A DNA stretch of 49,800 nt. Origin: Candidatus Bipolaricaulota bacterium. Its GTDB lineage: Bacteria > Bipolaricaulota > Bipolaricaulia > UBA7950 > UBA9294. The stretch lies in assembly GCA_021159105.1 (NCBI GenBank), contig JAGGSM010000064.1, positions 1-49,800 on the forward strand, in the 5' to 3' direction. The translations under genes and the position numbers were made by a program. Under the pieces are notes generated by a model. The model was not told the DNA's origin, made no database searches, and was given only the letters and a program-made list of their open reading frames with translations. This document shows, one piece after another, positions 39,345-49,195 of the stretch; position 1 is the stretch's first letter, and the number at the start of each line of letters is the position of its first letter.

Positions 39345-39486
39345 ATAGGTGTAGATCATTGACAAGTGAACCGAGAGGAAGATGGAAAGGAACCGAAGAC
39401 GGGGAACATCTGGGCCCCTCTTCAGATGACTATGAACAATACTTCAGCGGGCGGTCCGCTGAATGTAAGAAAATTCCTCATGAGAA

Positions 39487-39670
39487 GCATCTACTAAGAG
39501 CAAACCGCCCGAAAGGGCGGGACGCAAAGCTACGGACCTTCTGGACAACGCTCGCAAGGAGCATTGTGTAAAGGGCAAACCGGGAGCGATCCCGGGACGC
39601 AAAGCCACGGGTCTCATTGAGACAGCCGGGTTGCCGCAAGCAGTCTGATGGTGGCCGAGTTGCTGGATGC
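39487..39670 (+). promoter_or_regulatory. c-di-GMP-I (GEMM-I) riboswitch, outer aptamer of a nested tandem, copy 1
   Basis: 5' half GCAAACC-GCCC-GAAA-GGGC-GGGACGCAAAGCUACGGACC (39500-39538). 3' half GAUGGUGGCCGAGUUGCU (39647-39664). Closing helix GCAUCUA/UGGAUGC. Encloses the inner aptamer. Confidence 0.62.
39573..39635 (+). promoter_or_regulatory. c-di-GMP-I (GEMM-I) riboswitch, inner complete aptamer, copy 1
   Basis: GGGCAAACC GGGA-GCGA-UCCC GGGACGCAAAGCC ACGG GUCUC-AUU-GAGAC AGCCGGGUUGCC. Matches the GEMM-I core (GCAAAC, GNRA hairpin, GGACGCAAAGCC, GCCGGGUUnCC) as recalled from Vc2/RF01051. Confidence 0.85.
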
Positions 39671-39699: not shown

Positions 39700-40161
39700 A
39701 TGAGGAGCAGTAGAGTGATGGTAGGCCTGTTGGTGTTGAGCTTGGTGGTTGGGATGATTGGACTGGCTGGTATTGCTAAGCCAGGGAAACCACTGCCGCT
39801 GGGCCCGCGCCCATTGCCGCCGGAGATGTCTAACAGCGTTACTGATATGGTTTCATGGACTGTTCAGGGGTTCATCGAACTGACGATCGATGATAGTGCG
39901 TTCGACTTTGGACTGATCGATGCTGGAGTTGACTCCGTGACCGTAGAAGAGGCGAACACACTGGCTGTCGTAAGCAACACGGAGTGGACGCTGAGCTACA
40001 CGATCACGGGAACTGGCAGCGATCACCTGGGGGTCCTGCTCTCTGACGAAGCAGGAGAAGGGAACGCCGAAATCAACGTCGGCTACAGCCTGAATGACCT
40101 CCGTTCGATGGACCCGGGTAGCTACACTGCTACGGTTACCTACACAGTAGCGGCCAAGTAA
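39700..40161 (+). CDS. small secreted beta-sandwich protein, WxL-like/pilin-like (paralog 1)
   Basis: 153 aa from ATG 39700 (GGGAGGTG, 6-nt spacer), plus a signal peptide. Motifs are IELTIDDSAFDFGLID, VVSNTEWTLSYT and C-terminal PGSYTATVTYTVAAK. Confidence 0.8.
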   Translation: MRSSRVMVGLLVLSLVVGMIGLAGIAKPGKPLPLGPRPLPPEMSNSVTDMVSWTVQGFIELTIDDSAFDFGLIDAGVDSVTVEEANTLAVVSNTEWTLSYTITGTGSDHLGVLLSDEAGEGNAEINVGYSLNDLRSMDPGSYTATVTYTVAAK

Positions 40162-40346: not shown

Positions 40347-40499
40347 ATAAGTGTAGGTCATTGACAAGTGAACCGAGAGGAAAAGGAAGATGGATTGTCG
40401 AAAGGCGAGCAGACTGAGAAGCAGCTCGCCTGACGGCATGAGAAGGATCGAAAGATTGCAGTGGACGGTCCACTGCAAGTACTAGATATCCTCGGAGAA

Positions 40500-40688
40500 G
40501 CATCTACTAAAAGCAAACCGCCTGAAAGGGTGGGACGCAAAGCTACGGACCTTCTAGACAACGCTCGCAAGGGCATTGTGTACAAGGGCAAACCGGGAGC
40601 GATCCCGGGACGCAAAGCCACGGGCCTCTTGTATCAGAGGCAGCCGGGTTGCCGCAGGCAGTCTAATGGTGGCCGAGTCGCTAGATGC
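40500..40688 (+). promoter_or_regulatory. c-di-GMP-I riboswitch, outer aptamer of nested tandem, copy 2
   Basis: GCAAACC-GCCU-GAAA-GGGU-GGGACGCAAAGCUACGGACC (40513-40551), then AAUGGUGGCCGAGUCGCU (40665-40682). Closing helix GCAUCUA/UAGAUGC is 7 Watson-Crick bp. Confidence 0.62.
40586..40653 (+). promoter_or_regulatory. c-di-GMP-I riboswitch, inner complete aptamer, copy 2
   Basis: GGGCAAACC GGGA-GCGA-UCCC GGGACGCAAAGCC ACGG GCCUCU-UGUAUC-AGAGGC AGCCGGGUUGCC. The distal P3 helix differs from copy 1 but stays complementary. Confidence 0.85.
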
Positions 40689-40717
40689 ACTCAAAAAACC
40701 ATTGGGAGGTGCTTTCA

Positions 40718-41158
40718 ATGAGGATAAACAAGTTTATGGTAGGCATGTTGGTGTTGGGTTTGGCAGTGAGCGTTCTAGGCGCAGTCGCTTTGGCGACGCC
40801 CGGACACGGGAATGGCTACCACGCTTCAGATACGGCAGTAGACAACGTCTCGTGGACGATCCAGGGGTTCATTGAACTCACGATCGATAACGGCGCGTTT
40901 GATTTTGGTGAGATCGCTGCCGGTGTGGACTCCGTGAGCGAAAGAAACGCGAATACGCTGCATGTATTCAGCAACACAGCGTGGAAGCTCTCTTACTCCG
41001 TAACTGGAGCAGGAAGCGATCACCTGAGTGTGGCCATGTCTTCAGACGAAGGTGAAGGTAACGACGACATAACCGTCGGCTACAGCTTGAATAACCTTCG
41101 AATGATGCATCCTGATACGTACACGGCAACAGTCGTCTACACCGTCGCTGCCAAGTGA
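40718..41158 (+). CDS. small secreted beta-sandwich protein, WxL-like/pilin-like (paralog 2)
   Basis: 146 aa from ATG 40718 (GGGAGGTG RBS), plus a signal peptide. Motifs are IELTIDNGAFDFGEIA, VFSNTAWKLSYS and PDTYTATVVYTVAAK. Confidence 0.8.
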   Translation: MRINKFMVGMLVLGLAVSVLGAVALATPGHGNGYHASDTAVDNVSWTIQGFIELTIDNGAFDFGEIAAGVDSVSERNANTLHVFSNTAWKLSYSVTGAGSDHLSVAMSSDEGEGNDDITVGYSLNNLRMMHPDTYTATVVYTVAAK

Positions 41159-41447: not shown

Positions 41448-42512
41448 ATGATGCTAAGAGAGATGAGGTCTTCGGGCATTCACCTGATCGTTCTCTTCGT
41501 TATCGTGATCCTCTCGGTCAGCCTCCTGCAGGTCATCGGAGAGGCGGTGGTTATATCGAAGAGCCTCCTGCGCTTTGATGCTCAACCGGGGGCCAATGAG
41601 GAGACCCTGCTTACGGTTGAGAACAACGAGGGAAGCGACATCCGTGTCAGGGTCCGACTCATCGACTGGGATGATACCCCGGATGGGCGAACTCTCCTCT
41701 TTTCTCCGGATACCATTGAACGCTCCTGTTCCTCCTGGATAGAGTATGCTCCGCAGGCGTTCAATCTGCGCCCTGGACAGAAGCAGGAGGTACACGTGAC
41801 GATCCGTGTCCCCTCTTCAGCCGTGGGAACGTACTGGGCGGCTCTGCTCGTTGATAAGCCCGCCCAGCCAGACGCCCCGCCCGAGGGCGGGATTCGCGCC
41901 AAGACCCAGTTCTTGATAAAGATCTATCAGACATCCCTTCCAGCATCAACCACCGGGAAGATAGCAAGCGTTGTTGTCCGTGGGCTGGATCCGCTCTGGG
42001 TGACACTTCAGTTCGCCAACACAGGAGAGACCCTGATGGAGGACGTCAGCGCCACGGCTACTCTGCAGGATCGCACCGGACAGACGCTTGGTGAGCTCTC
42101 ATCTGATCCATTTTCCGTCCTGCCGGGCCACACGGTGGATGTTGCATTGGCAAGTTCACTTTACATGCAGGTTCCGGGAGTGTACCTCGTCACAGCGGTC
42201 GCCGACTATGGGGCCGATTACCTCGTTGCCGGCCAGGTCGCTCTGCGGATAAAGCAACTATCTCTCTCACCGATAGGGGGAAGCCTCAACACTCCAACAG
42301 ACCTCGATGGAGATGGCCTGTATGAAGACATAGACGGCGATGGAAGGCTCACGGAAGCGGACCTGTCTCTGTACACGAGCAACCTCGATGATAGGTGCAT
42401 AACGCGAAACAAACGCGCGTTTGACTATGACAACGACGGCGAGATAACACAGGACGATGTGGGCCTGTTACAGGCAATGCTATCACGCCAACAGGAGCGC
42501 GCCGGAAGGTGA
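41448..42512 (+). CDS. secreted two-Ig-domain, chaperone-like protein (DUF916/DUF3324-like) with C-terminal dockerin-type repeats
   Basis: Signal/TM segment. LLRFDAQPGANEETLLTVENNEGSDIRVRVRLIDW... is followed by a second beta domain. The C-terminus (nt about 42300-42485) has DLDGDGLYEDIDGDGRLTEADLSLY and DYDNDGEITQDDVGLLQAML, a duplicated Ca-binding loop plus helix as in type-I dockerins. Confidence 0.72.
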   Translation: MMLREMRSSGIHLIVLFVIVILSVSLLQVIGEAVVISKSLLRFDAQPGANEETLLTVENNEGSDIRVRVRLIDWDDTPDGRTLLFSPDTIERSCSSWIEYAPQAFNLRPGQKQEVHVTIRVPSSAVGTYWAALLVDKPAQPDAPPEGGIRAKTQFLIKIYQTSLPASTTGKIASVVVRGLDPLWVTLQFANTGETLMEDVSATATLQDRTGQTLGELSSDPFSVLPGHTVDVALASSLYMQVPGVYLVTAVADYGADYLVAGQVALRIKQLSLSPIGGSLNTPTDLDGDGLYEDIDGDGRLTEADLSLYTSNLDDRCITRNKRAFDYDNDGEITQDDVGLLQAMLSRQQERAGR

Positions 42513-42632: not shown

Positions 42633-43958
42633 TCAACCCGGATCATCTTCGCCAGCAGGCTGTATGCTGCTCAGGATATCCTTCAAACTAGGTGCTTCCT
42701 GCCCATTCCAACCGTCAGCTCTGACAGATATGGTGAAGTCAAGGCCCATCTCCGCATTGAGATTGGCCACTTGATCGCTCAGTCGCTTTGAGGCCACCTG
42801 TGCTCCGGCAAGCGGTGTCTCCGGCAGCAGCGCCACGAACCGTTGCTCGCTCACACGAAATACTGGATCAACCGATCGGAGCTTCGCAATGAGGAGGTTC
42901 GCTGTCGCCTGCAGGAGACGTTTCTTATTCTCTTCAGAGGTTCCCTCGCCCGGAGATATGTCTACGATCAGGACCGAAGTTGGATGCCCGTAGCGTGCTC
43001 CCTTCTTCAACTCCTGATCAAGGAGCCTTTGGAAGTAGGAGAACGTGTAAGTGCCCGTCTCTTCGTCGAGCATAACTACGTCCCGCAGTGCCTGTTCGCG
43101 CGATCCGATCACCTTTATCATCAGGTTGAAGACATCGATGAACCGCGCCATCTCGTCACGTACCTTCAGCCCTGCTTGCCTGACCGGCCCAGTCGATACC
43201 TGCACACCGTAGTTCCTCTGTGAGACACTCTCCGCCGCTGCTGCCAGCCTAAGGATCGGCCGGGTGACGATGAGGCTCACGATCCCGTAGATGAGGAAGC
43301 CGAGAACGAGGAATCCGATAACAGATGCCAGCCCAAGCTCTAGTGAGAGGTGATTGACGTAGCGTTGCTGTTCGGCAAGGGACATGTCCACCGAGACTAC
43401 CCCGACCAGATCTGCATCCATGAATAGAGGATAGTCTGCGCGCAGGTATGCTTCTCCCCCTACCCGAACCTGCCTTACCCGCACATCCCGCAGGGCGAGC
43501 AAGGCGCCCTGCGCTTCTTGTGAAAGGATCTTGCCAATCAGTGACGAGTCCGTGCTAGCGACAACTCGCAGCCCCCTGCCGGTCACTCCGCTGACCGTTA
43601 TGCCGACGATAGAGTCGTATCGTGTCATCAGGGTATTGATGTCTTGTTCCAGTTGGTCGGAGTAGTACAGTATATATGCCTTCTCCTGAAGCGACTTGGA
43701 GACGACGCTTGCCACGCTGCGGGCACGCTGCTCGTAGATCCCAGCGATGGTGGTGTGAAGCGATGTGAGCGACAACCAGGCTAGGATGCCGATAACTGAG
43801 AGTGTGATCACGAAGACAGGAACAAGAATCTTGATCTTCAGGGGGGATCGATAGTAGATGTTCGATGACAGGGTCATCAAGCCTCTCTTCAACCGGTGCT
43901 TGATCCTTGCCAGGTATCCCTGCTCTTCCGCTCTCTTGTCCTCAACATTCTCGGACAT
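42633..43958 (-). CDS. membrane sensor protein: extracytoplasmic domain, HAMP, degenerate GGDEF domain with intact RxxD I-site
   Basis: Two TM segments flank a domain of about 150 aa, followed by HAMP-like RPILRLAAAAESVSQ...FIDVFNLMI. The GGDEF position reads SEQRF, and RSVD lies exactly 5 residues upstream (KLRSVDPVFRVSEQRF, nt 42837-42878). DxLT...NRR is replaced by DEETGTYTFSYF. Start at ATG 43956-43958 behind GGAGGG. Confidence 0.8.
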   Translation of the reverse strand: MSENVEDKRAEEQGYLARIKHRLKRGLMTLSSNIYYRSPLKIKILVPVFVITLSVIGILAWLSLTSLHTTIAGIYEQRARSVASVVSKSLQEKAYILYYSDQLEQDINTLMTRYDSIVGITVSGVTGRGLRVVASTDSSLIGKILSQEAQGALLALRDVRVRQVRVGGEAYLRADYPLFMDADLVGVVSVDMSLAEQQRYVNHLSLELGLASVIGFLVLGFLIYGIVSLIVTRPILRLAAAAESVSQRNYGVQVSTGPVRQAGLKVRDEMARFIDVFNLMIKVIGSREQALRDVVMLDEETGTYTFSYFQRLLDQELKKGARYGHPTSVLIVDISPGEGTSEENKKRLLQATANLLIAKLRSVDPVFRVSEQRFVALLPETPLAGAQVASKRLSDQVANLNAEMGLDFTISVRADGWNGQEAPSLKDILSSIQPAGEDDPG

Positions 43959-43972
43959 TGCTACCAACCCTC

Positions 43973-46450
43973 CTATTGAGCCATCAATCCTTGCTGCACC
44001 ATGAACTGCCTGGCAGCCGCCGCTGGATCGCTGTGTAATAACCGTACCCTACTTACCAGGGAATGTACATTATCCGATGTGAGAAGGGGGCGAAGCTCCT
44101 CTTCAATAGCTCGCACTCCAGGGTGTGCATCGATCACGCTCTGGCGCGTGAAGAAGGTTATCTGCCGGGCAGTCAATGCTCCCTGATCATCGTTGAGTGC
44201 CTGGTATCCCACAATCGTAACTGCCTCTTGCAAGCTATGTACAATCGCTGCATCGACTGTCCCCAACTTCAGTGCGGTCTCTGACTCATCGATCCCGTTG
44301 GTCCAGACTACGTTATCCTCTTCGAGTGTTATCCCATATGTCGATGCGAGTGCTGCAACGCTGGCATGAGGGATCTCCCGCTCTACAGCTAGCTTCACGC
44401 TTCTCTGATCACCTGTGAGGTAGATGGCCAGGTTGGAGATTGTCGTTCCAGATAGATGGGTAGCTATCTCCGGGGATACGACAAGCAGGAGCGTATCTTC
44501 TGCTGGAAGAAGGCTGGAGGCGCTTATCCCTGTGTCCGATAGCTCTTTCACATCGAACAGATCGGCCTTCCCAACAGCGACATCGATATCGCCAGCGATG
44601 AGGGCATCCTTCACCTGTTCCTCGCTTTCGAGTCCGATTAGGTCGATCACTCTCATCCCCTCACTCGTTAATCCGAGCTGGAGGAGGCGAGCGATCATGA
44701 CTTGGTCGAGGGAGCTCGTTGCACCGAGGGCAACCGATGCCTTCCAAGACGACCTGGGGAGCACGACCTGGCCTACAATGCGGGAAGGGTCCTCTTCTTC
44801 TGCGCCGTTCCAGTAGTTTCCTTCCGCATAGATTGTCCTATCCGATGAGTTTGATATGTCGTATCTCTTGTTGCCGGAGAAGGAGTTCTTAGCTAGCGTA
44901 AGGGAGAAGCCCTGTTCCGCCCCGGCCAGAAGTTCGGAGTCGCTTCCTCGCAAGATCGTCTCTTGCTTGTCCAGTTTTGAGGAGATCTCCAGCCCAGTGG
45001 AGTTGTATGAGATAGTATTGCCTTCAAGCCTTGTGCCGGTCCCGGACTCGAACAGCCTTAGGGCAATCTCGCTGTGGCTGATGCGGTTGTCCAGAAGTGC
45101 GGTCTGTGATGAAGAGGCGATCAGTACTCCGACCTTGTTGTCCTTGAGAGTGTTGTCTTGAATGTGATTCTTGTCGGCATGATTGAGCAGACACAAGCCC
45201 TGTTCCGAGCTATTGGTCATGCTATTGCGCAGCAGTTGGTTATCGCTTGCTCCAATCAATGCCACTGCGTATGCGCTCCCAGCAGTGACATTGTCGAGGA
45301 GCAGATTCCGCGACCCGGCTGACAAGACAATTCCCGCCAGTGCGTTCTCCTTAAGCGAGTTGCGTAATACCCTATTTCTCGCACCTTCCAGGATCTGGAG
45401 CCCGATCGCGTTCTTCTCCAGGTCATTGGCAAGGATCAGGCTCGACTTAACCCCTTCCAGTGTGAGGGCTGTGCCTTGGCACGTGCTGACGAAGTTGTGC
45501 GTAATGCTGTTATCTTGGCACGCAGAGAGCGAAATCCCATCCCTGAGGCCGTCTTGCACGCTGTTTTCGGATATGGCGTTCTGTGGTGACTTGTACAGTG
45601 AGATCGCGTACTTGGCGCTCCTCCTGATTGAGTTATGCTCTATCCTGTTGTTGGAGGCAGTGTTCAGCAGAATGCCGGTTGCGCAGTCGGTGAACCTGCC
45701 CCCTGTAATGAGGTTCGAAGAGGAACTAAGAATCTCCAGACCGATTTCGCTGCAACTGATCGCGGTAAGCGTGGCGATCTCGTTCTCTTGTGAATCGTCT
45801 TCGATCGAGACTCCGACCCCAACCCCGTCCACGCTGATATCCTCGATCGTGTTGGACCAGGCGGAGGAGAGACGTACGCCAACTGCCGCGTCCTTTCCGA
45901 TGTGGATTTGCTGCAGCCTGTTTCGATTGGCGCTCATCATCTCTATTCCCGTCTTGCATCCGCCGATGACGATCGAGGTGATCACGCTACCGTTGGATTC
46001 GCTCGCCTGTATCCCGACGCGCGCTCCTTCGATAACAAGATCATCAAGACTGGCATTGACTGAGTGCAGCAATTGCACCCCGATGCCGTCTGCTTCGATC
46101 CTGAAACCACGTAACTCGATCCCCGTGGCATGAATTGTCACTGCCGGCTCACCGGTGGGACAGACAATCTTGGCTCGCCCGCCGGACGATATGATCGTTA
46201 CATTTGAAGCATCGATATGAATTGGCCCTTCGTACGGACCGCCTCTCGCTTGAACGACAATCGTCGAACCACCGGCGACTTGATCCAGAGCCGCTTGGAT
46301 CGTCGGGTAGTCCCTCGGCACGACTATCTGTGAAGAAGGAGCAGGTCTACTGACCAAGAAAAACCATGTAAGGGCGCAGGCCGCAAGGACTGCTACTCCT
46401 CCAATTCCCAGCACAAAGTGCCAACTTCCAGGCAGTTTCCTTGACCTCAT
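43973..46450 (-). CDS. membrane-anchored parallel beta-helix (NosD/PbH1-like) repeat protein fused to a C-terminal OpuAC-like solute-binding domain
   Basis: 825 aa with an N-terminal TM segment. About 20 repeats of roughly 22 aa (N..I..N.I....GI.L) span residues about 45-545. The last 255 aa or so (nt 43976 to about 44749) resemble glycine-betaine-type periplasmic binding domains (ALIAGDIDVAVG..., TVDAAIVHS...). Confidence 0.78.
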   Translation of the reverse strand: MRSRKLPGSWHFVLGIGGVAVLAACALTWFFLVSRPAPSSQIVVPRDYPTIQAALDQVAGGSTIVVQARGGPYEGPIHIDASNVTIISSGGRAKIVCPTGEPAVTIHATGIELRGFRIEADGIGVQLLHSVNASLDDLVIEGARVGIQASESNGSVITSIVIGGCKTGIEMMSANRNRLQQIHIGKDAAVGVRLSSAWSNTIEDISVDGVGVGVSIEDDSQENEIATLTAISCSEIGLEILSSSSNLITGGRFTDCATGILLNTASNNRIEHNSIRRSAKYAISLYKSPQNAISENSVQDGLRDGISLSACQDNSITHNFVSTCQGTALTLEGVKSSLILANDLEKNAIGLQILEGARNRVLRNSLKENALAGIVLSAGSRNLLLDNVTAGSAYAVALIGASDNQLLRNSMTNSSEQGLCLLNHADKNHIQDNTLKDNKVGVLIASSSQTALLDNRISHSEIALRLFESGTGTRLEGNTISYNSTGLEISSKLDKQETILRGSDSELLAGAEQGFSLTLAKNSFSGNKRYDISNSSDRTIYAEGNYWNGAEEEDPSRIVGQVVLPRSSWKASVALGATSSLDQVMIARLLQLGLTSEGMRVIDLIGLESEEQVKDALIAGDIDVAVGKADLFDVKELSDTGISASSLLPAEDTLLLVVSPEIATHLSGTTISNLAIYLTGDQRSVKLAVEREIPHASVAALASTYGITLEEDNVVWTNGIDESETALKLGTVDAAIVHSLQEAVTIVGYQALNDDQGALTARQITFFTRQSVIDAHPGVRAIEEELRPLLTSDNVHSLVSRVRLLHSDPAAAARQFMVQQGLMAQ

Positions 46451-46555: not shown

Positions 46556-47116
46556 TTACTTGGGCATCACCGTGTACACAACCTCAAGGCCATAGCTACC
46601 GGGCCGGTAGTCACTTCCGAGCAATATGCGGTGGTCAACACCGATGTCGAAGCTTCCCCGATTCCCACTTGCCAGTATCTGAGGTGTGTTGCTGATTGGG
46701 AAATACTCCCCTCCATGTTCGCGCAGCAGAAAGTCTGAGATTGGCTTTGTGAACGTTCTATCATCGCTCTGTCCCATATCAGTCTCATCTGTCCACACCT
46801 GGACCTTCCACGGGATATTGCTGTTTACGGTGAGGTCGACCGAGTTCATCTCCTCTATGTACCCCCGTTGAAGATCGTAATCTTCTGGCTGGGGCATCAC
46901 ATAATCGGCTGTCACCGAAGGCCCGTGCGTCCCGGAGCCGGCGATTCGCAGTTCTTGATACGGAAGAACGGTCCAGCTCATGTGCACAGTAACGGAGCTC
47001 TGAGTGGCTAACACCAGCCCGACAGCGGACACAGTAGCAATGCAGGCGAGAGCGACCATTGCCCCCCTCCTGTGCCCTTTGATCCACGCCCCGAATCTGG
47101 GAAAAACTCGTTTCAT
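46556..47116 (-). CDS. small secreted beta-sandwich protein, WxL-like/pilin-like (paralog 5)
   Basis: 186 aa from ATG 47114-47116 (AGAGGTG RBS), plus a signal peptide. Motifs are VNSNIPWKVQVW and C-terminal PGSYGLEVVYTVMPK. Confidence 0.7.
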   Translation of the reverse strand: MKRVFPRFGAWIKGHRRGAMVALACIATVSAVGLVLATQSSVTVHMSWTVLPYQELRIAGSGTHGPSVTADYVMPQPEDYDLQRGYIEEMNSVDLTVNSNIPWKVQVWTDETDMGQSDDRTFTKPISDFLLREHGGEYFPISNTPQILASGNRGSFDIGVDHRILLGSDYRPGSYGLEVVYTVMPK

Positions 47117-47215
47117 CATCATCACCTCTAACGCGTAGCCGCATAAACAAGCTACCGATGATACATCTATCATTCTACTGAGAAGCTTCGCTCCTCGCCA
47201 ATCGCTGACAATTAT

Positions 47216-47244
47216 ATTATACCTTGCACGCACATTCTTTAGAC
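47216..47244 (-). promoter_or_regulatory. shared promoter-like motif, copy on minus strand (GTCTAAA-N16-TATAAT)
   Basis: Minus strand reads GTCTAAAGAATGTGCGTGCAAGGTATAATATAATTG. Same 23-nt register as copies 1 and 2. No riboswitch lies between it and the 47116 start. Confidence 0.5.
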
Positions 47245-47379: not shown

Positions 47380-47407
47380 TTGACATGGCGCGCATGAGAA
47401 GTATAAT
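47380..47407 (+). promoter_or_regulatory. near-consensus sigma70-type promoter of the third riboswitch unit
   Basis: TTGACA (47380-47385), 16-nt spacer, TATAAT (47402-47407), followed by the same TATAGGTGTA as copy 1. Confidence 0.65.
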
Positions 47408-47502
47408 ATAGGTGTAAAAAGTGGCAGATGGTAAAAATAAGGGAGGTGGTAGGTGGAGTGAAGATTATGTAAACTGTACGAAGTAGTATGTTGCCTCTCA
47501 CA

Positions 47503-47676
47503 AGCATTGAAGGGCAACCCGCACGAAAGGGCGGGGCGCAAAGCTACGGCCTGCAAAGGTATGGACGAAAGGGCAAACCGGGAGCGATCCCGGGGCGCAA
47601 AGCCTTGAGTCTTCTTTTATTAGAAGATCGTCAGGCTGCCGTGGCGTACCTAATGGTGGCAGAGCTACAAGATGCT
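47503..47676 (+). promoter_or_regulatory. c-di-GMP-I riboswitch, outer aptamer of nested tandem, copy 3 (divergent)
   Basis: GGGCAACCC-GCAC-GAAA-GGGC-GGGGCGCAAAGCUACGGCC (47511-47551), then AAUGGUGGCAGAGCUAC (47652-47668). Closing helix is AGCAUU/GAUGCU. Confidence 0.55.
47571..47640 (+). promoter_or_regulatory. c-di-GMP-I riboswitch, inner complete aptamer, copy 3
   Basis: GGGCAAACC GGGA-GCGA-UCCC GGGGCGCAAAGCC UUGA GUCUUCU-UUUAUU-AGAAGAU CGUCAGGCUGCC. Confidence 0.8.
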
Positions 47677-47708
47677 CATGAAATAAAGACCATTAGGAGG
47701 TGCTTAAC

Positions 47709-48206
47709 ATGAAGAGGCTTTTTATATCGATTTTGGTAGTAGCGGTGGCAGTGAGTGTGGGTGTTGCGGTTTGGGCCAGCAATCCACAGGATGTACGGGT
47801 GAACTGGCACACCAATAGTTGGATTATCCTCTACGTGCCCGACCAGAGTATCGAGCTGGGTACGATTGACGGTAGCCAGTACAATCCGGCGAGCGAGACC
47901 TGGACGCCGATTACCGATGGGAGCGATCACAGCGCGTACGTGATAACGAACAACGCCGCTGGCTTCACGCTTTCGGTGTCTGCCGCAAACGCTGCTGGGT
48001 ATGTAGCAGCTGATCTGTCTCGTTTCCAGATGGTTGGTGGGAATCTCGGAACGTGGACTGGTAACCTCAATAACACTCAGATCCTGAGCGGTTCGAGTGT
48101 TGGTGTCGGGAGAGCAACCAACATCAACTACCAGTACGTTCCAAGCTGGGACGATGCTGCTGGTGACTATCGCGTGATCGTCACCTACACGGCGACCGCA
48201 CAATAG
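47709..48206 (+). CDS. small secreted beta-sandwich protein, WxL-like/pilin-like (paralog 3)
   Basis: 165 aa from ATG 47709 (AGGAGGTG, 6-nt spacer), plus a signal peptide. Motifs are SIELGTIDGSQY, ITNNAAGFTLSVS and AGDYRVIVTYTATAQ. Confidence 0.78.
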   Translation: MKRLFISILVVAVAVSVGVAVWASNPQDVRVNWHTNSWIILYVPDQSIELGTIDGSQYNPASETWTPITDGSDHSAYVITNNAAGFTLSVSAANAAGYVAADLSRFQMVGGNLGTWTGNLNNTQILSGSSVGVGRATNINYQYVPSWDDAAGDYRVIVTYTATAQ

Positions 48207-48232: not shown

Positions 48233-49195
48233 ATGGCCGCTCCACATTCCAAAATGTCCATCAAAGCTGTTCTTCTTTTCCTTCTCGTCTTCCTTCTGGC
48301 CAGTCTGGGCGCCATCGCCAAAACGAGCTGCAACAGTTGGTGGACGGACGAAACCTGCCTCACCGTGCATCCTGATGTCGATCTGGGGACCATCGACTCA
48401 TCCCTTTTTCATGGTGCCACACCCGAAGGGAGCGGCGCATTACAGCCGCTCACGGCGCTGGACAACGCAATTGACATTACGCGCAATGGTTGGGCGAGCC
48501 TGAACTGGACCCTTGAGGTCAAGGCGGCATCGAGCTTGGGGGTGGCCCTTTCGCGCCTGCACTGGAGACACAGTGGAACAGGAGAAGGATACCTGCCGTT
48601 CTCATCGCTCGGCGCTTGGACGCAAGTGGCGACTGGGAGGGGGTCGGCATCTGTCCCAGTGGACTATGAGTACTTGCCGACAACTGCGGATGCTCCTGGG
48701 AACCATCAAGTTACCCTCACCTATCGTGTCACGATCTCATGGGGATCCTATGAGTTGTATTCTGTCAGTGAGGACACGGTGTTGTTCCTCAATGCACGTG
48801 ACTGGATTGTCCTTGCCATTAACGATCGCATCGATCTTGGCACGATCGATGGCGCCGGTTATGTGATGGGAAGGGGGCTTCCGGCGCGTGACAGTGTTGG
48901 CAATGGCATGTTCATCGTCAGCAATTTGACTACGGGCTGGGATGTCACGCTTCAGGTAGGATCGCTATCAACCCCACCGTGCTACAGAGGGGATCTGTTG
49001 AGAGTCTTCTTCTGGCAGATAGACGGCTCGACGTTCCGTTCGGCGAGCGGGCTGCAGGCGCAGCCCATCACTGTGGCTTCAAGCAGTGCGCCAGGGAAGG
49101 TGCAGCACACGCTCGGCTACCGCTACACTCCAACGACTGCTGAATGCGGAGGAGATTATTCCATATCTTTGATCTACACGGCAACGCCGCGCTAG
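48233..49195 (+). CDS. secreted protein with two tandem copies of the same WxL-like/pilin-like domain (paralog 4)
   Basis: 320 aa with a signal peptide. Domain 1 has DVDLGTIDSSLF, LNWTLEVK and PGNHQVTLTYRVTIS. Domain 2 has RIDLGTIDGAGY, TTGWDVTLQV and GGDYSISLIYTATPR. Confidence 0.75.
   Translation: MAAPHSKMSIKAVLLFLLVFLLASLGAIAKTSCNSWWTDETCLTVHPDVDLGTIDSSLFHGATPEGSGALQPLTALDNAIDITRNGWASLNWTLEVKAASSLGVALSRLHWRHSGTGEGYLPFSSLGAWTQVATGRGSASVPVDYEYLPTTADAPGNHQVTLTYRVTISWGSYELYSVSEDTVLFLNARDWIVLAINDRIDLGTIDGAGYVMGRGLPARDSVGNGMFIVSNLTTGWDVTLQVGSLSTPPCYRGDLLRVFFWQIDGSTFRSASGLQAQPITVASSSAPGKVQHTLGYRYTPTTAECGGDYSISLIYTATPR

Follow-up and report, generated by a model that had tools for sequence, protein, structure and literature searches.

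The window analysed here is a stretch of 49,800 nucleotides (nt), positions 1 to 49,800 of contig JAGGSM010000064.1 (assembly GCA_021159105.1) from a Candidatus Bipolaricaulota bacterium. At 47503-47676 of its forward strand lie two cores of the GEMM-I family, the class I riboswitch of cyclic di-GMP (c-di-GMP-I), with their helices in nested order. This leader is placed between a sigma-70-type promoter and the AUG of a gene for a 165-amino-acid (aa) secreted protein. Its outer aptamer is split into two halves, 47503-47551 (5' strand of P1, P2 and 5' strand of P3) and 47655-47676 (3' strands of P3 and P1), which flank the inner aptamer. Two further leaders of the same kind, copies 1 and 2, precede it in the window, hence we refer to it as copy 3, and the genes after all three leaders are paralogous and encode small secreted beta-rich proteins.

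A nested fold had been proposed for this leader from the letters of the window alone (the original prediction), and its sequence statements were all borne out at the coordinates given. Both GEMM cores are kept in copy 3, the closing helix that encloses them (outer P1) is complementary as described, the one G.A mismatch of outer P3 was verified next to an additional bulged A, and the inner P3, UUGAGUCUUCU / AGAAGAUCGUCAGG, pairs as claimed and agrees with the Rfam alignment. The strands AGGUAU 47557-62 and GUACCU 47646-51, read as a bridge between the two aptamers, are likewise complementary and are lengthened by the pair G47563-C47645; a G/GG internal loop follows and then ACG 47565-67 / CGU 47640-42, the inner P1. 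The bridge of copy 3 is a long inner P1 stacked on outer P3, and there is no three-way junction. We compared the duplex energies of copy 3 with those obtained after 5000 shuffles of the 3' strand. Outer P1 (-8.8 kcal/mol) was equalled by 3/5000 shuffles and the bridge together with inner P1 (-10.8 kcal/mol) by 113/5000, outer P3 (-7.8 kcal/mol, 948/5000) is not significant alone, and the summed flanking helices reach -27.4 kcal/mol against -14.15 +/- 3.41 in shuffles, with 1/5000 as good. The original prediction had presented copy 3 itself as the covariation support of the fold; one copy in one window cannot prove it, and the proof comes from its relatives, at least 94 in number.

Genome and metagenome contigs were scanned for two GEMM-I cores too close to each other for a complete first aptamer, using the pattern CGCAAAGC-N18-48-GGCAAACC-N8-30-CGCAAAGC. 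After parsing of all loci, the same arrangement, which the original prediction had proposed to seek in other genomes, was present in at least 94 distinct leaders; all counts over 94 leaders given here are among the matches listed. The named source organisms are mostly metagenome-assembled genomes of Candidatus Bipolaricaulota/Acetothermia, some being labelled Thermotogae or Neomarinimicrobiota, and several contigs (L009, L040) carry three copies within 2-3 kb, as does the window. Three subtypes were distinguished. In type A (at least 64 leaders, including copies 1 and 2 of the window) a three-way junction joins the bridge helix to an accessory hairpin and to inner P1; in type B (at least 18 leaders, including copy 3) there is no conserved accessory hairpin and a lengthened inner P1 stacks on outer P3; type C (at least 12 leaders) resembles type B, with a different and longer bridge. 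The same scans also returned ordinary compact tandems with a complete P3 in every unit (L103, L151, L156, L209, L216 and L228), which served as a contrast set. Seen against these subtypes, two statements of the original prediction hold in part. Copy 3 was said to lack the accessory hairpin, which is right for the subtype as a whole, where none is conserved among the 18 type B leaders, but in copy 3 itself GCCU-GCAA-AGGU (47549-60) can fold into a local hairpin, in competition with the AGGUAU/GUACCU helix. As a candidate for a conserved accessory hairpin it was rejected: apart from copy 3 it was seen just in L116 and L147, the nearest relatives of that copy (GUAA loop), and it is not kept in type B. 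Similarly, AGGUAU/GUACCU was said to replace CUGGAC/GUCUG at the same position; positional homology is confined to the 3' strands, which lie just 5' of AAUGGUGGC, and does not extend to the 5' strands, AGGUAU in copy 3 and CUGGAC in copies 1 and 2.

Since outer P1 has to enclose both cores, the test of the fold hinges on this helix. Among the leaders it occurs as GCAUCUA/UAGAUGC, GCACCUA/UAGGUGC, AGCGCC/GGUGCU, AGCAUU/GAUGCU (copy 3), GGGGCACC/GGUG-U-CUCC and GCACU/AGUGC. Compensatory versions of the bridge were found within each subtype: UAGGC/GCCUA, UAGAC/GUCUA and UAAGC/GCUUA in type A, GGUAUG/CGUACC, UAGGCAG/CUGCCUA (L072) and CGC/GCG (L079) in type B, and GGCUGC/GCAGCC and GGUG/CACC in type C. 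An alignment-free test, which covered 89-90 leaders, set the duplex energies of cognate 5' and 3' strands against those of permuted partners. Cognate outer P1 strands gave -10.20 against -8.68 +/- 0.18 kcal/mol (0/2000 permutations as good, z = -8.3) and cognate bridge strands -6.98 against -5.25 +/- 0.16 kcal/mol (0/2000, z = -11.1). Three control pairs of unrelated segments showed no cognate advantage (1879-1960/2000 permutations as good), thus shared ancestry alone does not yield the signal. Pair counting on the 48 sequences of type A found 93.6% of cells paired in the full nested structure against 31-40% for slid partners, with 22 pairs changed on both sides against 13.3 +/- 1.7 in shuffles (0/500) and a covariation score of 0.222 against 0.140 (0/500). 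For the outer helices of type A only, 90.4% of cells are paired against 27-36% for slid partners, and in type B (14 sequences) 85.7% against 30-43%. The nested fold, with both cores conserved and with outer P1 and the bridge covarying, therefore holds on related sequences in covariation and permutation tests alike. Subtype alignments and the alignment-free test were used because the three subtypes are out of register in J1/2 and in the linker; RNAalifold, run on a mixed MAFFT alignment of 36 sequences, found inner P3 and the P2 stems but not the outer helices, and it proposed pairs that are invariant and uninformative. In the minimum free energy (MFE) fold, GCUACGG of the outer P3 5' strand pairs with CCGUGGC of the inner 3' tail; this pairing has no cognate advantage (1904/2000 permutations as good) and was discarded as a conserved element.

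The original prediction did not include the expression platform, and AAUGGUGGC is also half of a helix that sequesters the Shine-Dalgarno (SD) sequence. The MFE folds of copies 1 and 3 are without outer P1 and without outer P3/bridge, and contain two long-range clamp helices instead. In the first of these, Alt-1, the bridge and outer P3 contribute their 3' strand, CCUAAUGGU 47649-57, as partner of ACCAUUAGG 47689-97; in the second, Alt-2, AAGCAUU 47502-08, which includes the 5' strand of outer P1, pairs with GGUGCUU 47699-705. Jointly they cover the SD AGGAGGU from both sides. Both helices covary: cognate Alt-1 strands gave -13.57 against -12.46 +/- 0.13 for permuted ones (0/2000, z = -8.7) and cognate Alt-2 strands -10.53 against -9.92 +/- 0.10 (0/2000, z = -6.1), while pair counting over both clamps found 84.6% of cells paired against 35-67% for slid partners and a covariation of 0.201 against 0.150 (0/500). 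Type C carries a fully compensated 12-bp version of Alt-1, GCCUAUUGGUGG/CCACCAAUAGGC; further versions are CUGAUGGUGG/CCACUCAG and UUAUAUGGU/ACCAUGUGG, and Alt-2 occurs as GAGGCAUCU/AGGUGCUUC and, in type C, as UCGGGGCACC/GGUGCUUCGA. The strong conservation of AAUGGUGGC is accounted for by its two jobs, in outer P3 and in the SD clamp. The nested fold is less stable than the OFF-like MFE fold by 8.3 kcal/mol in copy 3 and 12.5 kcal/mol in copy 1, a gap that ligand binding could plausibly cover. Transcription is predicted to start about 90 nt upstream of outer P1.

Table 1. Coordinates of the copy 3 leader and its associated features, and of copies 1 and 2, within the window
Feature	Position	Strand	Details
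Sigma-70-type promoter	47380-47407	+	TTGACA-16 nt-TATAAT; 12/12 consensus matches, 0.9 +/- 1.1 expected in shuffles; consensus match only
Outer core, copy 3	47512-44	+	GGGCAACCC 47512-20, GCAC 47521-24, GAAA 47525-28, GGGC 47529-32, GGGGCGCAAAGC 47533-44
Inner core, copy 3	47571-604	+	GGGCAAACC 47571-79, GGGA-GCGA-UCCC 47580-91, GGGGCGCAAAGCC 47592-604
Outer P1	47503-08 / 47671-76	+	AGCAUU / GAUGCU; 5 Watson-Crick pairs and 1 G.U
Outer P1 5' strand, full	47499-47508	+	AGCAUU 47503-08 plus CA 47499-500
Outer J1/2 and P2	47512-47541	+	G20-equivalent G47513, GAAA tetraloop 47525-28, A47-equivalent A47540
Outer P3 5' strand	47542-47551	+	AGCUACGGCC; bulged A47546, as in the GEMM-I consensus
Outer P3	47544-51 / 47655-64	+	CUACGGCC / 3' strand; A47546 bulged, G47548.A47661 mismatch
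Bridge and inner P1, 5' strand	47557-47567	+	AGGUAUG-G-ACG
Bridge and inner P1, 3' strand	47640-47651	+	CGU-GG-CGUACCU
Inner aptamer, complete GEMM-I	47563-47644	+	P2 loop GCGA 47584-87; G20-equivalent G47572, A47-equivalent A47599, C92-equivalent C47639
Conserved CCUAAUGGUGGCAGAGCU	47649-47666	+	Outer P3 3' strand (47655/58-47666) in the ON state
Outer aptamer 3' end	47667-47680	+	A47667, C92-equivalent C47668, 2-nt spacer, P1 3' strand GAUGCU 47671-76, plus UG 47679-80
Expression platform	47689-47711	+	ACCAUUAGG (Alt-1 partner), SD AGGAGGU 47695-701, GGUGCUU 47699-705 (Alt-2 partner), AUG 47709-11
Regulated gene	47709-48206	+	165-aa secreted, beta-rich protein of a lineage-specific family
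Two-domain paralogue of the regulated gene	48233-49195		Downstream of 47709-48206
Copy 1, type A	39487-39670	+	Inner aptamer 39565-39639; accessory hairpin, three-way junction; outer G20-equivalent A39499
Copy 2, type A	40500-40688	+	Inner aptamer 40578-40657; outer G20-equivalent A40512

The outer unit retains the marks of an aptamer, its core having lost none of the conserved GEMM-I nucleotides. In all 94 leaders GGCAA(A/C)CC...CGCAAAGC is invariant in the outer as in the inner aptamers. Outer J1/2, GCAA(A/C)CC, the P2 hairpin and GRCGCAAAGC take part in no alternative helix, yet are as invariant as their inner counterparts while the flanks diverge, and the P2 stems covary, those of the outer unit included. 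P1, P2 and P3 of the outer unit come together at one three-helix junction, P1 and P2 with covariation and P3 as a complementary, conserved helix with rare compensatory changes. Pocket positions G20, A47 and C92 are given in what we take to be the numbering of Vc2, mapped via the Rfam consensus (for copy 3 see Table 1). The position-20 equivalent is G in 94/94 inner aptamers and in 82/94 outer ones, and the ...GC that contains the C92 equivalent is kept ahead of P1 in every leader listed. Judged by pocket sequence, both units are canonical c-di-GMP-I aptamers. The base of outer P3 mirrors the canonical pattern of inner P3, a bulged A and a 2-nt bulge (GCUACGGACC / GGUGGCCGAGYYGC and GCCACGGGUC / GACAGCCGGGYUGC, respectively), which suggests that the element arose via insertion of a duplicate aptamer into the P3 loop. 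The P2 tetraloops differ in class, the outer being GAAA in about 92/94 leaders and the inner GCGA or GUGA (GYGA) and never GAAA; this difference would prevent docking on the wrong partner. No P3 receptor for the P2 GNRA tetraloops could be assigned from sequence, the invariant CCU.../...AAUGG of outer P3 being a candidate. It is not the classical 11-nt GAAA receptor, since the U-A pair beside CC/GG covaries as a Watson-Crick pair (A-U in type C).

In Rfam searches the inner aptamer of copy 3 passes the gathering score of RF03167 (60.6 bits against 59, E = 6e-12), and the inner aptamers of copies 1 and 2 reach 72.7 and 63.6 bits. The outer 5' half of copy 3 (47504-47559) scores 26.9 bits (E = 0.0003), with P3 skipped by the local alignment, and for the outer aptamers of copies 1 and 2, again with only the 5' half aligned, the RF01051 scores are 37.1 and 34.0 bits (gathering score 35), as the model cannot span an insertion of 100 nt. 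Copies 1 and 2 give the same pair of matches as copy 3, and in 17 related loci scanned with Rfam the nested elements show as two adjacent matches and would pass for ordinary tandems in a count. Of the Rfam models, c-di-GMP-I-GGC (RF03167) gives the inner aptamers their highest scores (60-79 bits). The consensus of this model, from which we took the meaning of ‘GGC’, has G at position 37 (CGCGAAG). In all 94 leaders both aptamers have A instead (CGCAAAG), thus the inner aptamers were not filed as GGC variants, and a scan of all loci found no CGCGAAG-type cores near nested elements. For the inner aptamers of the three window copies, with A at the variant-defining position, the c-di-GMP-I-GGC label is misleading.

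From the comparison of these sequences we consider it likely that two nested aptamers form a c-di-GMP-I riboswitch, that they share one expression platform, and that they switch translation ON, with outer P3 being stabilised when the inner aptamer binds its ligand. The strands released on aptamer unfolding are complementary to the SD, and ON with ligand is therefore the predicted direction. Without ligand, the outer aptamer would be unfolded and its two outermost strands would clamp the SD via Alt-1 and Alt-2 (OFF). The inner aptamer would be transcribed and folded first, and its bound ligand would stabilise inner P1. In types B and C this helix leads without interruption to the bridge and to outer P3 and would compete directly with Alt-1; in type A the effect of the inner aptamer would be relayed through the three-way junction. 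Completion of outer P3 and P1 would create the pocket at the outer three-helix junction, and a second ligand bound there would lock the clamp strands in outer P3/P1, free the SD and switch translation ON. Translation would thus probably depend on two ligand-binding events, and we infer that c-di-GMP is bound by both pockets and that the two sites act hierarchically or cooperatively.

Several observations weigh against this riboswitch model, and some of them lead to its main rival, in which only the inner aptamer binds ligand and the outer one is a decayed duplicate whose P1 and P3 strands are kept as anti-sequestor strands of the platform. Proximal outer P3 is invariant within each subtype (14/14 in type B) and therefore shows almost no covariation, the sole compensatory event being a change from U-A to C-G in L003 (47545/47663 equivalent), with U.G in a few others, and this conservation could equally stem from its second role in the SD clamp. 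Near the junction the G.A mismatch (47548/47661) is invariant in 14/14 type B leaders and most type A leaders have A.C where the consensus is A-U, and the outer aptamer of copy 3 stays below the Rfam gathering score, because the Rfam models cannot span the insertion. The clamp role alone would conserve AAUGGUGGC and the P1 strands. A decayed duplicate would not account for how well the J1/2-P2 core of the outer unit is conserved: neither J1/2 nor the P2 hairpin nor ...GRCGCAAAGC belongs to either clamp, and all are still as invariant as in the inner aptamer, the outer P2 stem covaries with its GAAA loop retained, and the ...GC of the C92 equivalent precedes P1 throughout. We regard a single sensor as quite unlikely. 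Other points concern the switching itself. In types A and B, Alt-1 reaches no further than the first 2-3 nt of the SD, and in type C it ends just before it; inner P1 of type A does not overlap the clamp strands; in that subtype the influence on switching would have to pass via the three-way junction.

An automatic pipeline would read the two adjacent Rfam matches as a doublet, that is a side-by-side tandem, or a truncated first aptamer before a normal riboswitch, with coincidental flanking complementarity. However, the linker from the first CGCAAAGC to the second GGCAAACC is just 24-47 nt and therefore too short for a P3 hairpin plus the 3' strand of P1, whereas the true compact tandems from the same scans have a complete P3 per unit. 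Moreover, outer P1 and the bridge covary across the inner aptamer, the shuffle test of copy 3 gave 1/5000, and instead of contiguous aptamers with a platform each there is an outer aptamer split by the inner one and a single SD platform. The tandem reading is already disfavoured and we give it next to no credence. A switch that acts by transcription termination could be sought in one terminator-like site at 47591-47607, but this lies inside the inner aptamer, where it extends from the 3' strand of P2 into the beginning of P3, and does not exceed chance expectation (0.8 +/- 0.9); no terminator beyond chance and no U-tract hairpin between 47676 and the AUG were found. An OFF switch is opposed by the SD-complementary strands that are freed when the aptamers unfold, and both possibilities appear very improbable. 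For copies 1 and 2 only, and not for copy 3, a two-input gate was considered, the pockets of which would sense different dinucleotides, 3'3'-cyclic GMP-AMP (3'3'-cGAMP) and c-di-GMP. Their outer aptamers have A at the G20 equivalent, as do 12/94 outer and 0/94 inner aptamers, and G20A is reportedly the signature of the GEMM-Ib (3'3'-cGAMP) riboswitches (Kellenberger 2015; Nelson 2015). The same change at position 20 is described for a c-AMP-GMP aptamer (PMC9481103). On the other hand, both pockets of copy 3 have G, a cGAMP synthase was not identified among the proteins of the window, and the only GGDEF protein encoded there is degenerate. Among natural GEMM-I RNAs with A20, many have kept their binding of c-di-GMP or are promiscuous. 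The gate is conceivable but a doubtful proposition.

In both units the nested riboswitch resembles Vc2 of Vibrio cholerae (c-di-GMP-I, RF01051, clan CL00126) in J1/2 A-G-G, in GCAAACC...GACGCAAAG and in the P1-P2-P3 junction. It shares with c-di-GMP-I riboswitches the GNRA loop on P2, the 3' ...UGC/UAC-C ahead of P1 and the location upstream of secreted/surface-type genes. Unlike in these, the apical part of outer P3 is replaced by a whole second aptamer and the outer halves are about 105-125 nt apart. Tandem c-di-GMP-I riboswitches amount to 347 doublets and 12 triplets, with a triple tandem of Bacillus thuringiensis cited among them, and are treated as side-by-side, pseudo-cooperative units with separate platforms; nesting of aptamers is not mentioned in that tandem-riboswitch review (PMC9481103). 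The nested pair likewise places two sensors of the same class in one leader, which are expected to sharpen the response, but one aptamer lies inside the other, helices are shared, there is one platform and the folding of the outer unit depends structurally on the inner. As in the tandem glycine riboswitch, two homologous aptamers with potential cooperative binding serve one platform; the glycine aptamers are adjacent and joined by tertiary contacts, whereas here the coupling runs via the continuous helix of inner P1, bridge and outer P3. In Spinach-GEMM-I biosensors, which are engineered, a sensor aptamer is grafted onto a stem via a transducer helix. As in engineered allosteric aptamers and aptazymes and in the natural pair of a c-di-GMP-II aptamer and a group I ribozyme (PMC9481103), ligand on the inserted aptamer would stabilise a stem that the host fold needs; unlike in these, host and guest are natural aptamers of the same class, both predicted to bind ligand, and have diversified into three subtypes. 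The nearest functional analogues are the tandem glycine riboswitch and the engineered sensors with one aptamer grafted onto the stem of another. No description of nested aptamers or riboswitches was found in the searchable literature, although an earlier mention in Weinberg 2017 (PNAS, the source of the GGC family) is possible, and full-text searches combining Bipolaricaulota/Acetothermia with riboswitch or c-di-GMP returned nothing relevant. With somewhat less than even confidence we propose that the element is a natural ‘aptamer within an aptamer’, the inner acting as a ligand-dependent transducer for outer P3. The pair would then be a two-site sensor, truly cooperative or of a hierarchical AND type, whose single platform clamps the SD on both sides; within the A20 sub-clade (copies 1 and 2) it could serve as a two-input gate for c-di-GMP and cGAMP. 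Such an architecture class would be absent from current tandem catalogues.

Some further features of the leaders were observed. In 15/94 relatives inner P3 is longer by about 50-115 nt (e.g. L099:1428+, L104:1272+, L040, L069, L019:2354+, L051, L101); most of these extensions consist of repeats of about 10 nt, (G/A)GGTTC(A/G)TT, with a GAAC-rich complementary arm, and the inserted sequence is unrelated in L134, L144 and L234. The G.A mismatch of outer P3 in type B goes together with the loss of one A in the 5' strand with respect to types A and C (GGACC/GGCC and GGCCG/GGCAG), a coordinated, non-Watson-Crick change. Upstream of copies 1 and 2 (39354-39376 and 40356-40378 of the window) there is a conserved leader start, G(A/G)TCATTGACAAGTGAACCGAGA. 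In relatives (L108:60-260, L032:4740-4950, L090:1240-1480(-), L074:1340-1580(-)) a GEMM-I aptamer of the conventional kind, the third of the leader, comes after it and lies about 80 nt ahead of the nested pair; in the window this third aptamer was lost or was never present.

The proteins encoded after the leaders belong to no Pfam or NCBIfam family above threshold. A search among 5.8 billion proteins yielded 27 homologues, all unnamed and one of them from Ca. Bipolaricaulota, with Pfam domains in 0/27. The AlphaFold model of the regulated protein has a mean predicted local distance difference test (pLDDT) score of 73, and its Foldseek matches in the PDB are weak (E > 0.01, template modelling (TM) score about 0.4), those of highest probability being the chaperone-usher pilins PapA, FimA and CsuA/B. 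A role in a surface fibre would fit control by c-di-GMP, which we take only as a lead. Between the riboswitch-controlled genes (42633-43967, reverse strand) lies a gene for a protein with sCache_3_2 and GGDEF domains, in which SEQRF replaces GG[D/E]EF; instead of acting as a cyclase, the protein may be a receptor of c-di-GMP. The genes at 39700-40161, 40715-41158, 41448-42512, 46556-47233 (reverse strand), 47709-48206 and 48233-49195 make up a cluster of secreted paralogues that end in ...Y-T-[AV]-x-x. Its other members are a protein of 354 aa whose C-terminal domain is dockerin-like and a large beta-helix/OpuAC protein (43973-46450, reverse strand). As a whole, the cluster looks like a surface-structure locus.

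Known multi-aptamer riboswitches stand side by side, from which the nested arrangement differs. If the proposed reading is true, a nested pair with shared helices and a single platform is a natural route to a steep two-event switch from one aptamer class and would be the natural counterpart of the transducer-stem designs in synthetic RNA sensors. As automatic annotation by adjacent Rfam matches hides the nested topology, some of the hundreds of catalogued ‘doublets’ may be nested as well. The element can be tested directly: its natural variants number at least 94 and represent three subtypes, the ON and OFF folds are predicted, and the two pockets can be told apart by point mutations. Furthermore, for a phylum without a cultured model it marks lineage-specific secreted proteins of the Bipolaricaulota, possibly pilin-like, as putative outputs of c-di-GMP signalling.

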